64,000 nt of DNA from Escherichia coli (lineage in GTDB: Bacteria; Pseudomonadota; Gammaproteobacteria; Enterobacterales; Enterobacteriaceae): NCBI RefSeq assembly GCF_003334765.1, contig NZ_QOWT01000009.1; one strand, given 5' to 3'. The notes beneath the pieces were generated by a model. The model was not told the origin of the DNA. It did no database searches and saw nothing but the letters and a program-made list of their open reading frames with translations. Numbering within the stretch: position 1 is the stretch's first letter; each line of letters begins with the position of its first letter. Positions 55,788 to 62,821 of this stretch are shown here, piece by piece. The position numbers and the translations under genes were made by a program.

Positions 55788-57773
55788 ATGAATAACTCTC
55801 GGTTATTCCGTTTGAGCAGGATTGTTATTGCGTTAACTGCCGCCAGCGGCATGATGGTAAATACCGCTAACGCGAAAGAGGAAGCGAAAGCCGCCACTCA
55901 ATATACCCAACAGGTTAATCAGAATTACGCCAAATCATTACCGTTTAGCGATCGTCAGGATTTTGACGATGCCCAGCGTGGATTTATCGCCCCGCTGCTG
56001 GATGAAGGTATTCTGCGTGATGCGAACGGTAAAGTTTACTACCGCGCGGACGATTACAAATTTGATATTAATGCCGCAGCGCCGGAAACCGTAAACCCCA
56101 GCCTGTGGCGTCAGTCGCAAATCAACGGTATTTCTGGCCTGTTCAAAGTCACCGATAAAATGTATCAGGTGCGCGGCCAGGATATCTCTAACATTACGTT
56201 CGTTGAGGGCGAGAAAGGCATTATTGTTATCGACCCGCTGGTGACGCCGCCTGCCGCAAAAGCCGCACTTGACCTTTACTTCCAGCATCGTCCGCAAAAA
56301 CCGATTGTTGCCGTTATCTACACTCACAGCCACACCGACCACTATGGTGGCGTGAAAGGCATTATCTCTGAAGCCGATGTTAAATCCGGCAAAGTTCAGG
56401 TGATTGCCCCTGCAGGCTTTATGGACGAAGCCATCAGCGAAAACGTGCTGGCGGGTAACATCATGAGCCGCCGTGCGCTCTACTCTTACGGTCTGTTACT
56501 GCCGCACAACGCGCAAGGCAATGTGGGTAATGGCCTTGGCGTGACGCTGGCAACGGGCGACCCGAGCATTATTGCACCGACGAAAACTATCGTCAGAACT
56601 GGCGAGAAGATGATTATCGACGGCCTGGAGTTTGACTTCCTGATGACCCCAGGTAGCGAAGCGCCAGCCGAAATGCACTTCTATATTCCGGCCCTGAAAG
56701 CCCTGTGTACCGCCGAGAACGCCACGCATACCCTGCACAACTTCTACACTCTGCGCGGCGCGAAAACCCGCGACACCAGCAAGTGGACCGAGTATCTGAA
56801 CGAAACGCTGGATATGTGGGGTAACGACGCGGAAGTGCTGTTTATGCCGCACACCTGGCCGGTCTGGGGCAATAAGCATATCAATGATTATATTGGTAAA
56901 TACCGCGATACCATCAAGTACATTCACGACCAGACCCTGCACCTGGCGAACCAGGGCTACACCATGAATGAAATCGGCGACATGATTAAGCTGCCGCCTG
57001 CACTTGCCAATAACTGGGCCAGCCGCGGCTATTACGGTTCTGTCAGCCACAACGCCCGCGCGGTGTATAACTTCTATCTTGGCTATTACGACGGTAACCC
57101 GGCTAACCTGCATCCGTATGGTCAGGTGGAGATGGGTAAACGTTACGTGCAGGCGCTGGGCGGTTCTGCCCGTGTCATCAACCTGGCGCAAGAAGCGAAC
57201 AAGCAAGGTGATTACCGCTGGTCGGCAGAACTGCTGAAACAGGTGATTGCCGCCAACCCGGGTGACCAGGTCGCGAAGAATCTGCAAGCGAATAACTTTG
57301 AACAGCTGGGCTATCAGGCCGAGTCCGCCACATGGCGCGGTTTCTACCTGACCGGCGCGAAAGAGCTGCGCGAAGGGGTGCATAAGTTCAGCCACGGCAC
57401 CACCGGTTCCCCGGACACCATTCGCGGGATGTCGGTCGAAATGCTGTTCGACTTTATGGCCGTTCGCCTCGATAGCGCGAAAGCTGCGGGTAAAAATATC
57501 AGCCTGAACTTCAATATGAGCAACGGCGATAACCTCAACCTGACGCTGAACGATAGCGTGCTTAACTACCGGAAAACGCTGCAACCGCAAGCCGACGCCT
57601 CTTTCTACATCAGCCGTGAAGATCTGCACGCCGTGCTGACCGGACAAGCCAAAATGGCGGATCTGGTAAAAGCGAAGAAAGCCAAAATTATTGGCAATGG
57701 CGCGAAACTGGAAGAAATTATCGCCTGTCTGGATAATTTCGATTTGTGGGTGAATATCGTAACCCCAAATTAA
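55788..57773 (+). CDS. yjcS: YjcS, secreted alkyl/aryl-sulfatase of the metallo-beta-lactamase fold (661 aa)
   Basis: Start at MNNSRLFRL with signal peptide; HxHxDH motif ([11 protein letters not shown]); recognised. Confidence 0.9.
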
Positions 57774-57781
57774 TGTCACTC

Positions 57782-61358: not shown

Positions 61359-62821
61359 TCAATCGTCAACTTTCACGTCTGCTGTTGTGCAGCATTCTCG
61401 GCAGCACGACGCTGATTTCCGGCTGTGCCCTGGTACGTAAGGATTCTGCACCTCATCAACAGCTCAAACCGGAACAAATCAAACTGGCCGACGATATTCA
61501 TCTTGCCAGCTCCGGCTGGCCGCAGGCGCAGTGGTGGAAACAACTCAATGACCCGCAGCTGGATGCGCTGATCCAACGGACGCTAAGTGGTTCACACACC
61601 CTCGCCGAAGCGAAACTGCGGGAAGAAAAAGCGCAGTCCCAGGCCGATTTGTTAGATGCCGGTTCACAATTACAGGTCGCAGCGTTAGGGATGCTCAACC
61701 GCCAACGTGTCTCGGCGAACGGCTTTTTAAGCCCTTATTCAATGGATGCGCCAGCACTGGGTATGGACGGGCCGTACTATACGGAAGCCACAGTAGGTTT
61801 GTTTGCCGGACTGGATCTTGATTTGTGGGGTGTGCATCGCTCAGCGGTTGCCGCCGCCATTGGCGCGCATAATGCCGCGCTGGCAGAAACCGCAGCAGTA
61901 GAGCTATCGCTGGCCACGGGCGTAGCGCAGCTTTATTACAGTATGCAGGCCAGCTATCAGATGCTCGATCTGTTAGAACAAACTCACGATGTGATTGATT
62001 ACGCGGTGAAAGCGCACCAGAGTAAAGTGGCGCACGGTCTGGAAGCGCAAGTGCCTTTCCACGGCGCGCGGGCACAGATTCTGGCGGTCGATAAACAAAT
62101 TGTTGCCGTCAAAGGGCAAATCACCGAAACGCGAGAATCTCTGCGTGCATTGATTGGCGCGGGAGCCAGCGATATGCCGGAGATCAGACCGGTGGCATTA
62201 CCGCAAGTCCAGACCGGCATTCCGGCGACACTCTCTTATGAGTTGCTCGCCAGACGCCCGGATCTGCAAGCCATGCGCTGGTATGTTCAGGCGTCATTAG
62301 ATCAGGTGGATTCCGCGCGGGCGTTGTTCTATCCGAGCTTTGATATCAAAGCGTTTTTCGGTCTGGACTCCATCCATCTGCATACCTTATTCAAAAAAAC
62401 CAGTCGCCAGTTCAACTTCATCCCGGGTCTGAAATTGCCGCTGTTTGACGGTGGACGGTTGAATGCCAATCTCGAAGGCACGCGCGCCGCCAGCAACATG
62501 ATGATTGAACGTTACAACCAGTCAGTACTGAACGCGGTGCGTGACGTTGCCGTCAACGGCACGCGTCTGCAAACGCTCAACGACGAGCGAGAAATGCAGG
62601 CTGAACGCGTGGAAGCCACGCGCTTTACCCAGCGCGCTGCCGAGGCCGCCTATCAGCGCGGCTTAACCAGCCGCTTACAGGCCACCGAAGCCCGGTTGCC
62701 AGTGCTTGCCGAAGAGATGTCATTACTGATGCTGGACAGCCGCCGGGTGATCCAAAGCATTCAGTTGATGAAATCGCTGGGCGGCGGGTATCAGGCAGGT
62801 CCCGTCGTCGAGAAAAAATAA
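61355..62821 (+). CDS. mdtP: Outer-membrane efflux channel MdtP (TolC family lipoprotein, 488 aa)
   Basis: Lipoprotein signal LISGC; ATGA overlap with mdtO. Confidence 0.93.
   Translation: MINRQLSRLLLCSILGSTTLISGCALVRKDSAPHQQLKPEQIKLADDIHLASSGWPQAQWWKQLNDPQLDALIQRTLSGSHTLAEAKLREEKAQSQADLLDAGSQLQVAALGMLNRQRVSANGFLSPYSMDAPALGMDGPYYTEATVGLFAGLDLDLWGVHRSAVAAAIGAHNAALAETAAVELSLATGVAQLYYSMQASYQMLDLLEQTHDVIDYAVKAHQSKVAHGLEAQVPFHGARAQILAVDKQIVAVKGQITETRESLRALIGAGASDMPEIRPVALPQVQTGIPATLSYELLARRPDLQAMRWYVQASLDQVDSARALFYPSFDIKAFFGLDSIHLHTLFKKTSRQFNFIPGLKLPLFDGGRLNANLEGTRAASNMMIERYNQSVLNAVRDVAVNGTRLQTLNDEREMQAERVEATRFTQRAAEAAYQRGLTSRLQATEARLPVLAEEMSLLMLDSRRVIQSIQLMKSLGGGYQAGPVVEKK

Follow-up and report, generated by a model that had tools for sequence, protein, structure and literature searches.

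Immediately downstream of yjcS, an alkyl sulfatase gene of Escherichia coli, lie the genes of a tripartite efflux system, ytcA-mdtNOP. A preliminary description of this DNA had suggested, as speculation from adjacency, that sulfatase and pump form a functional pair in which detergent-like sulfate esters are degraded and exported. The question raised by the locus is whether the two are linked in this way or are merely neighbors on the chromosome. It is considered here within a window of 64,000 nt of E. coli DNA, the whole stretch that was analyzed.

Gene content of the locus

By Megablast, positions 55000 to 64000 match E. coli K-12 MG1655 with 100% identity, and 5420 of the 5426 complete E. 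coli genomes carry the region. All five genes belong to the annotated core gene set of E. coli K-12. RefSeq annotation places all five at exactly the coordinates given below. The arrangement described earlier, in which yjcS is followed by a terminator, ytcA and mdtNOP with overlapping junctions, was borne out by RefSeq, folding and the junction sequences. The features of the locus are as follows.

55516..55787, + strand: alsK-yjcS spacer, presumed yjcS promoter region (272 nt, 36% GC)
55788..57773, + strand: yjcS, periplasmic type III alkyl sulfatase of metallo-beta-lactamase (MBL) fold, 661 aa (RefSeq, Pfam, PDB)
55788..55874, + strand: apparent YjcS signal peptide, residues 1-29, ending ANA|K (sequence reading)
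56325..56342, + strand: codons of the HxHxDH motif, HSHTDH, residues 180-185 (sequence reading)
57782..57821, + strand: yjcS intrinsic terminator with 12-bp stem, 6-nt loop and T-rich tail (folding)
57855..57981, + strand: conserved ytcA upstream region, putative promoter/operator and leader (12-locus alignment)
57982..58257, + strand: ytcA, 91-aa lipoprotein, AaeX-like small subunit (RefSeq, Pfam, AaeX identity)
58276..59307, + strand: mdtN, periplasmic adaptor of the EmrA/HlyD family, AaeA-like, 343 aa (NCBIfam, AaeA identity)
59307..61358, + strand: mdtO, inner-membrane component, FUSC / aromatic-acid-exporter family, 683 aa (NCBIfam, Pfam)
61355..62821, + strand: mdtP, outer-membrane channel lipoprotein of the NodT family, 488 aa (NCBIfam, lipobox)
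62828..62863, + strand: terminator-like hairpin after mdtP, end of the ytcA-mdtNOP unit (11 pairs, 6 of them G-C, then TTTCGTTTCG)

Within the pump genes, mdtN and mdtO overlap by 1 nt (TAATG) and mdtO and mdtP by 4 nt (ATGA), and the gap from ytcA to mdtN is 18 nt.

The alkyl sulfatase YjcS

YjcS matches three Pfam domains: Lactamase_B (7.8e-27), the dimerization domain Alkyl_sulf_dimr (PF14863, 2.2e-56, full length 1-139) and the SCP-2-like C-terminal domain Alkyl_sulf_C (PF14864, 6.4e-37). In a PDB sequence search the same protein was found as crystal structure 4PDX (1458 bits), and full-length matches were obtained to SdsAP (4NUR, 1.3e-214), Pisa1 (2YHE, 1e-182) and SdsA1 of Pseudomonas aeruginosa (2CFU, 6.8e-182). 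The three-domain architecture and the HxHxDH motif are common to all four proteins, with no structural difference that would set YjcS apart. On domains, motif and full-length similarity, YjcS is the E. coli member of the type III (MBL-fold) alkyl sulfatases. The N-terminus looks like a Sec signal peptide, and the crystallized chain of 4PDX starts at residue 30. The earlier reading of YjcS as a signal-peptide-bearing sulfatase of MBL fold thus agrees with the Lactamase_B match, the position of HSHTDH and the start of the crystallized chain. A passage of PMC6107682, citing Liang et al. 2014, ascribes SDS activity to the protein. Among complete E. coli genomes, the allelic divergence of YjcS is unusually high.

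The spacer between alsK and yjcS contains one sigma-70-like site, at 55550-55578. Binding of RpoN/NtrC in this spacer was reported from gSELEX (PMC8743547), and the RT-qPCR text of that paper gives no yjcS result. The sigma-54 promoter that this report brought to mind was not retained: the motif TGGCAC-N5-TTGCW does not occur at two or fewer mismatches in 55516-55787, and matches over the whole window are no more frequent than by chance (34 versus 43 expected).

Components and family of the YtcA-MdtNOP pump

The small lipoprotein and the three-part pump of membrane-fusion, inner-membrane and outer-membrane-channel proteins, as first described, were recovered by Pfam, NCBIfam and the lipoboxes. 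YtcA carries the lipobox VSGC (Cys27) and two predicted membrane helices, and matches the Pfam families Ytca (1.7e-15) and DUF1656 (0.0016). MdtN has one N-terminal membrane helix; it scores 535 bits with NCBIfam NF007785 (cut-off 376) and also passes the EmrA/EmrK adaptor model TIGR00998 (419.7 bits, cut-off 390.8). MdtO scores 1370 bits with the equivalog NF008510 (cut-off 821) and matches the Pfam families FUSC (PF04632, Fusaric acid resistance protein family, 1.3e-17) and FUSC_2 (1e-7), with a very weak match to ALMT. MdtP carries the lipobox ISGC (Cys24) and scores 1023.7 bits with NF007390 (cut-off 597) and 272.8 with TIGR01845 (cut-off 210). An HlyD/EmrA-type adaptor (MdtN) and a NodT-type outer-membrane lipoprotein channel (MdtP), the parts of a tripartite pump, are therefore both present.

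Gene order and three protein families are shared with AaeXAB of E. coli. YtcA is 38% identical to AaeX over 63 aa (E 8e-6) and MdtN 29% identical to AaeA (E 2e-35), whereas MdtO and AaeB are very distant, with only local similarity (24%, E 1e-4). On this evidence from gene order and protein comparison, ytcA-mdtN-mdtO is a paralog of aaeX-aaeA-aaeB to which an outer-membrane channel of its own has been added. The dedicated NodT-type channel gene mdtP is found only in ytcA-mdtNOP, the lipoprotein signal of YtcA is absent from AaeX, and no LysR regulator gene like aaeR adjoins ytcA-mdtNOP. The substrates of AaeXAB, the closest characterized relative of the pump, are aromatic carboxylic acids rather than alkyl sulfates.

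In EmrAB-TolC and EmrKY-TolC the adaptor is of the same subfamily as MdtN; the inner-membrane protein, however, is of the major facilitator (MFS) type rather than the FUSC type of MdtO, and TolC stands in place of MdtP. Tripartite fusaric-acid pumps in which a FUSC protein, an adaptor and an outer-membrane factor are encoded together are known as FuaABC in Stenotrophomonas and as the Fus proteins in Burkholderia, and MdtNOP has these three components in common with them as they are generally described. Fusaric acid is not among the MdtNOP substrates in the literature searched.

MdtO has been called an RND transporter (PMC8672772) and listed as MFS (PMC11762307, PMC8277102, PMC11026601). Judged by its family matches, it is instead a FUSC/AaeB-type exporter and neither of these. 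An RND domain (ACR_tran, about 1000 aa, 12 helices and large periplasmic loops) was not detected in the 683-aa protein by Pfam, NCBIfam or Foldseek. An MFS domain was likewise absent in Pfam and NCBIfam, and the Foldseek matches to MFS proteins were noise (probability at most 0.10, with a low-confidence model). A PDB sequence search with MdtO returned nothing at E<=0.01. The AlphaFold2 model, built from 25 orthologs, has a mean pLDDT of 60, with membrane helices below 50. Its top seven Foldseek matches are all ALMT proteins (probability 0.80-1.00, E 2e-3 to 0.5, TM about 0.3-0.5), and no solved structures other than those of the plant ALMT anion channels AtALMT1 and AtALMT9 resemble it. MdtO is twice as long as ALMT, so that a single ALMT protomer covers about half of its length. 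These matches give a weak indication that MdtO may have an ALMT-like fold. To our knowledge, there is no solved structure for any member of its pump family.

Terminator and the region upstream of ytcA

The spacing between yjcS and ytcA is 208 nt. Directly after yjcS, a stem at 57782-57811 of 12 bp, including 7 G-C pairs, is followed by a T-rich tail; it folds at -23.2 kcal/mol (z = -5.5), and none of 200 shuffled sequences was as stable. A stable hairpin was found directly 3' of the yjcS stop codon in all nine of the examined enterobacterial species loci that carry the gene (z -2.4 to -6.1), from Escherichia, Salmonella arizonae, Kluyvera georgiana, Citrobacter (2 species), Pluralibacter, Pseudocitrobacter and Superficieibacter. 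Between genera the hairpin is kept, with stems of unrelated sequence. By these predicted folds, the terminator is functionally conserved across genera despite turnover of its sequence. Between 54000 and 64000, the only Rfam matches at E<=1 were the SECIS element of fdhF and a chance match on the terminator hairpin.

About 125 nt upstream of ytcA are conserved in an alignment of 12 loci from seven genera, including Kluyvera intermedia, whose locus lacks yjcS. The conserved blocks in 57855-57981 are ATAAGTTATGAATGCGGT, AAAGCTATTTTT, AAAATAGCCATACTG, (A/T)CATTCAC, GATATTGTTCGCA and ACAGGATGTATTT, and the region contains an inverted repeat, GCTATTTT...AAAATAGC. We infer that the blocks represent a putative promoter, operator or leader. 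A simple scan of the + strand of the spacer gave no strong match to the sigma-70 promoter consensus, and the mdtNOP promoter is described as lacking experimental confirmation (PMC11762307). Two other candidates in this region were discarded. Pairing of ACATTC with the Shine-Dalgarno sequence GGATGT in a leader RNA gave -2.6 kcal/mol and no compensatory pairs in RNAalifold with nine sequences, and a small ORF, ATGAATGCGGTGGCTGAATAA, has lost its ATG in S. arizonae and varies in length.

Synteny and independent loss

The Enterobacteriaceae share the gene order phn-yjdP-(als)-yjcS-ytcA-mdtNOP-fdhF-yjcO, with the als operon upstream of yjcS in Escherichia only. In all informative Enterobacteriaceae loci with a close YjcS (9/9), yjcS lies beside ytcA-mdtNOP in the same orientation, and those same loci also retain fdhF and yjcO beside mdtP. 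Around more distant YjcS homologs (at most 72% identity), YtcA, MdtO and MdtP were found in the flanks of none of 51 loci, 37 of which had flanks of 5 kb or more in both directions. The adjacency is confined to the Enterobacteriaceae and is no more than regional synteny.

Each unit has also been lost or damaged where the other remains. The Kluyvera intermedia locus reads phnP-yjdP-ytcA-mdtNOP-fdhF. Within 7 kb nothing there matched YjcS at E<=1e-3, a result for the locus and not for the whole genome. In E. coli MB50, alsB'-yjcS was lost by an IS1 deletion and ytcA-mdtNOP was kept. Conversely, in Citrobacter sp. wls619 yjcS is intact and a deletion fuses mdtN, at about codon 297, to the 3' end of mdtP. 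Frameshifts interrupt mdtN, at different positions, in Kluyvera georgiana and a Pluralibacter MAG, both with an intact yjcS, although these are draft or MAG sequences in which sequencing errors are possible. Kluyvera genomosp. 3 was left out because frameshifts occur in every gene, including fdhF, and were treated as assembly error. Among complete E. coli genomes, a yjcS match was found in 5357 of 5426 and ytcA-mdtNOP in 5420 of 5426.

Two independent units or one system

The evidence makes it very probable that yjcS and ytcA-mdtNOP are two independent, already described transcription units, which adjoin because chromosomal order is conserved in the Enterobacteriaceae. The first would be monocistronic yjcS, whose product would be exported through its Sec signal peptide and, as a binuclear-metal sulfatase, would split SDS and other alkyl sulfate esters into alcohol and sulfate; its transcript would stop at the strong intrinsic terminator. 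The second would be ytcA-mdtN-mdtO-mdtP, translationally coupled and driven by its own conserved upstream region. Its product would be a pump of the AaeXAB type, with a two-helix lipoprotein, an EmrA/AaeA-like adaptor, a FUSC exporter and a NodT-type channel, and its substrates are most likely weak acids, mainly aromatic ones.

Reports on the pump concern other compounds than detergents. The substrates named are acriflavine, puromycin, tetraphenylarsonium, pyrrolomycins and armeniaspirols (PMC11762307, PMC8277102, PMC8672772). Genetic evidence shows that mdtOP is required for pyrrolomycin and armeniaspirol resistance in tolC mutants, where MdtOP confers it only after an 8855-bp deletion from alsR to mdtN that puts mdtOP under the als promoter; the resistant strains lack yjcS (PMC8672772). 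The pump appears to contribute little unless a mutation activates it, and its native expression is probably low. In the literature searched, no link of MdtNOP to SDS or alkyl sulfates was found, and yjcS and mdtN are named together in a single paper, only as a deletion interval.

A detoxification module kept together by selection, in which YjcS would remove the sulfate from detergent-like esters in the periplasm and YtcA-MdtNOP would export either the ester or its alcohol product, is very unlikely. Such a functional link would also predict the adjacency and co-orientation that are kept in at least seven enterobacterial genera; the products of both units act in the cell envelope, and FUSC-type pumps may handle anionic amphipathic molecules, as alkyl sulfates are. 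However, the equal synteny of fdhF and yjcO means that adjacency adds no signal, and none of the distant YjcS homologs adjoins such a pump. The terminator between the units in every yjcS-carrying species locus, the upstream region of ytcA that persists where yjcS is absent, and the reciprocal loss or decay of the two units all argue against the pair, as do the reported substrates and those of AaeXAB. Neither co-transcription nor co-occurrence beyond synteny, as expected of a single operon or module, is indicated by the sequence comparisons. The pairing first offered as speculation is hence opposed by terminator, upstream region, independent loss and background synteny alike.

Partial transcriptional coupling without shared function, in which ytcA-mdtNOP would be silent but for a low basal level of expression through terminator read-through from yjcS, is unlikely as well. 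Intrinsic terminators leak, so that some read-through may occur, and the short distance on one strand, the absence of a strong sigma-70 match in the spacer and the unconfirmed mdtNOP promoter are compatible with it. Against it stand the very stable hairpin with its T-rich tail and the blocks kept upstream of ytcA in K. intermedia without yjcS, which favor a local promoter. A conditional envelope module of enterobacteria despite separate transcription is likewise very unlikely. YjcS would then desulfate, in the periplasm, anionic sulfate esters derived from host or diet, the pump, TolC-independent by virtue of its own outer-membrane channel, would remove either the parent anion or the membrane-active alcohol from the cell, and the blocks upstream of ytcA would be the operator of a regulator that senses such compounds.

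Implications

The pump operon has been part of the drug-efflux literature since 2001, the genes are annotated and the structure of YjcS is solved, so that the finding itself matters little. Its use is in interpretation. Adjacency at this locus is no ground for assuming a functional link, given the conserved terminator and the reciprocal gene loss. For the pump itself, classification of MdtO as a FUSC/AaeB-type protein rather than RND or MFS would alter the substrates and the mechanism to be expected of MdtNOP.

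Gene arrangement and conservation in E. coli

The alkyl sulfatase gene yjcS and the pump operon ytcA-mdtNOP are flanked in the RefSeq annotation by alsK upstream of yjcS, and by fdhF and yjcO downstream of mdtP.

Genes of the region (window positions; RefSeq annotation, matching record)
55788-57773, yjcS
57982-58257, ytcA
58276-59307, mdtN
59307-61358, mdtO
61355-62821, mdtP

The span 55788-62821 of the preliminary description runs exactly from the yjcS start to the mdtP stop, and the overlapping junctions it mentioned were seen as TAATG (mdtN/mdtO, 1 nt) and ATGA (mdtO/mdtP, 4 nt). 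An 18-nt gap separates ytcA from mdtN, and a terminator-like hairpin is located at the operon end (62828-62853). E. coli K-12 MG1655 is 100% identical over 55000-64000, and the region is found in 5420 of 5426 complete E. coli genomes. At the level of annotation, the preliminary reading is correct and the genes are already known.

Several other elements were observed nearby. A perfect 10-bp inverted repeat, GTTGGCACAG-N15-CTGTGCCAAC (55533-55567), lies just 3' of the alsK stop codon with no T run after it; it may mark where als transcription ends, or be bound by a protein. A -24/-12 type site, TGGCATAAAAGATGCA, is present at 62952-62967 upstream of fdhF, which starts at 63019 and contains an in-frame TGA (selenocysteine) at 63436-63438, with a SECIS element after it (63431-63485; Rfam SECIS_2, 87 bits). 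Among individual E. coli strains, ISVsa5 (IS10-like) occurs in the mdt region of ET12567, LY180, KO11FL and BY63, IS1 lies within yjcS of 184/2aE, W3110 has an additional insertion of about 1.2 kb in the region matching 55000-64000, and the annotated mdtO of MB50 has an internal stop.

The YjcS sulfatase

All three domains of the type III alkyl sulfatases (Lactamase_B, Alkyl_sulf_dimr and Alkyl_sulf_C) were found in YjcS, which bears out its description as an alkyl sulfatase of the metallo-beta-lactamase fold. The expected HxHxDH motif is present as HSHTDH at residues 180-185. The proposed signal peptide is likewise recognizable: a positively charged beginning is followed by a hydrophobic core, with a site for cleavage at ANA|K. 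The chain crystallised as PDB 4PDX ('putative alkyl/aryl-sulfatase YjcS') has residue 30 as its first. SdsAP, Pisa1 and SdsA1 match over the full length (E 1e-182 to 1e-214). In a paper on SDS-degrading Pseudomonas, YjcS is named among SDS-active enzymes with reference to Liang et al. 2014 (PMC6107682).

A gSELEX study reported that RpoN/NtrC bind in the spacer between alsK and yjcS (PMC8743547). No -24/-12 motif was found in this spacer, and the text of that study contains no yjcS expression result.

Across complete E. coli genomes, yjcS varies far more in sequence than the adjoining pump operon: 1469 genomes have yjcS at 90-95% identity and 174 at 80-90%, against 3 and 1, respectively, for ytcA-mdtNOP (57982-62821). 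The difference points to separate classes of yjcS allele or to a boundary of recombination close to the terminator. A tandem duplication was observed in Superficieibacter electus (L005:10001-14077), where ytcA-mdtNOP is preceded by two full-length yjcS copies, both with about 82% identity to the E. coli protein.

Termination after yjcS and the region upstream of ytcA

The strong terminator proposed after yjcS was recovered as a 12-bp stem with 7 G-C pairs and a T-rich tail (-23.2 kcal/mol, z = -5.5; no shuffle was as stable). A stable hairpin directly follows the yjcS stop codon in 9/9 yjcS-carrying species loci examined, with stem sequences that differ from genus to genus; this pattern indicates that selection maintains termination itself.

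Six conserved blocks, common to all genera compared, lie in the roughly 125 nt before ytcA and are kept even in Kluyvera intermedia, whose DNA on the far side of this stretch is unrelated. They have the look of a putative local promoter/operator. Neither covarying RNA structure nor an Rfam family match was found in the ytcA leader. In the window, the blocks conserved across 7 genera occupy 57855-57981. Among them is an inverted repeat, GCTATTTT(T)-N10-12-(A)AAAATAGC, immediately followed by a conserved CCATACTG. Both arms are changed together in Superficieibacter (CTATTTTAC...GTAAAATAG), and this region may be the operator of a regulator.

Synteny and independent loss

A YjcS scan with one genome per species gave 61 loci. 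Directly downstream of yjcS, ytcA and mdt genes are found in each of the 9 informative loci whose YjcS is close (at least 80% identity); these belong to three Escherichia lineages, Salmonella arizonae, Superficieibacter, two Kluyvera, Citrobacter sp. wls619 and a Pluralibacter MAG. Because fdhF, and usually yjcO, is also conserved downstream in every such locus reaching far enough, the adjacency of yjcS and the pump is part of general regional synteny; the upstream als operon is found in Escherichia only. Near distant YjcS homologues (at most 72% identity; Microbulbifer, Marinobacter, Bacillaceae, Rhodopseudomonas and others), YtcA, MdtO or MdtP was found in 0/51 loci, 37 of which extend 5 kb or more in each direction. 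All MdtO orthologues in a large protein collection are at least 64% identical and enterobacterial where named; yjcS is upstream of the pump in Citrobacter freundii and Pseudocitrobacter as well.

Each unit can be lost while the other is kept. Kluyvera intermedia has the order phnP-yjdP-ytcA-mdtNOP-fdhF, with no YjcS-like sequence in the locus at E<=1e-3. Matches to yjcS and ytcA-mdtNOP occur in 5357 and 5420 of 5426 complete E. coli genomes; in MB50, the one example checked, an IS1-flanked deletion removed alsB'-yjcS and the pump genes were kept. Independent pump decay with intact yjcS was observed in three lineages: in Citrobacter sp. wls619 a deletion joins mdtN, at about codon 297, to the 3' end of mdtP (L014:11378-12300), and mdtN is frameshifted at different places in Kluyvera georgiana (L008:12494-13521) and the Pluralibacter MAG (L022:12495-13516), draft or MAG assemblies in which errors are possible. 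The first two have intact fdhF; the third locus ends before it.

Relationship of the pump to other transporters

MdtN, MdtO and MdtP each score above the curated cut-off of their own NCBIfam equivalog, and MdtN and MdtP also pass the EmrA/EmrK adaptor and NodT outer-membrane-factor models, in agreement with the tripartite efflux system first described. The 91-aa YtcA, taken there as lipoprotein-like, indeed has a lipobox (VSGC, Cys27), followed by two hydrophobic segments; that of MdtP is ISGC, Cys24. YtcA matches Pfam Ytca and, weakly, DUF1656 (AaeX family). Pairwise comparison with the aaeXAB proteins of the MG1655 locus gave 38% identity over 63 aa for AaeX and YtcA (E 8e-6), 29% for AaeA and MdtN (E 2e-35), and 24% over 157 aa for AaeB and MdtO (E 1e-4). 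By these similarities, ytcA-mdtN-mdtO is distantly paralogous to aaeX-aaeA-aaeB, which encodes the aromatic carboxylic acid pump, and ytcA-mdtNOP adds a dedicated outer-membrane channel.

MdtO is classed inconsistently in recent papers, as an RND/acrB homologue (PMC8672772) or as MFS (PMC11762307, PMC8277102, PMC11026601); here, only FUSC and FUSC_2 domains and the distant relation to AaeB were found. No solved structure matched MdtO by sequence. An AlphaFold2 model from 25 orthologues had a mean pLDDT of 60 with poor membrane helices. The sole PDB fold relatives of this low-confidence model were plant ALMT anion channels, which make up all of the best seven matches (probability 0.80-1.00, E 2e-3 to 0.5, TM-score about 0.3-0.5); such a predicted likeness is a hint consistent with the weak Pfam ALMT match of MdtO.

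Substrates and activation of the pump

MdtNOP has been linked to acriflavine, puromycin and tetraphenylarsonium susceptibility (PMC11762307; PMC8277102), and to pyrrolomycin and armeniaspirol resistance in tolC mutants (PMC8672772). This resistance follows from an 8855-bp deletion that runs from alsR to mdtN, takes yjcS with it and puts mdtOP under the als promoter; further removal of mdtOP abolishes the resistance (PMC8672772). In the literature searched, a single paper names yjcS and mdtN jointly, solely as a deletion interval. The mdtNOP promoter is described as lacking experimental confirmation (PMC11762307). Armeniaspirol-resistant tolC mutants carried a clustered MdtO replacement (S2K, A3T, L4I, N5G, S6T, L7E, L9C; PMC8672772). 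MdtO residues 2-9 are encoded at 59310-59333, directly at the mdtN/mdtO overlap, which hints that the pump is activated by a change in how translation starts or is coupled there.

Functional relationship of the two units

The preliminary description had speculated that sulfate esters are degraded by YjcS and exported by the pump. The evidence does not support such a coupling of hydrolysis to export: yjcS and the pump operon are insulated, have been lost separately, and adjoin each other only in a family whose entire neighbourhood is syntenic. As far as sequence can show, they appear to be separately regulated, and even a conditional functional link between them is very improbable. Aromatic acids, rather than sulfate esters, are what the nearest characterised relative of the pump handles.
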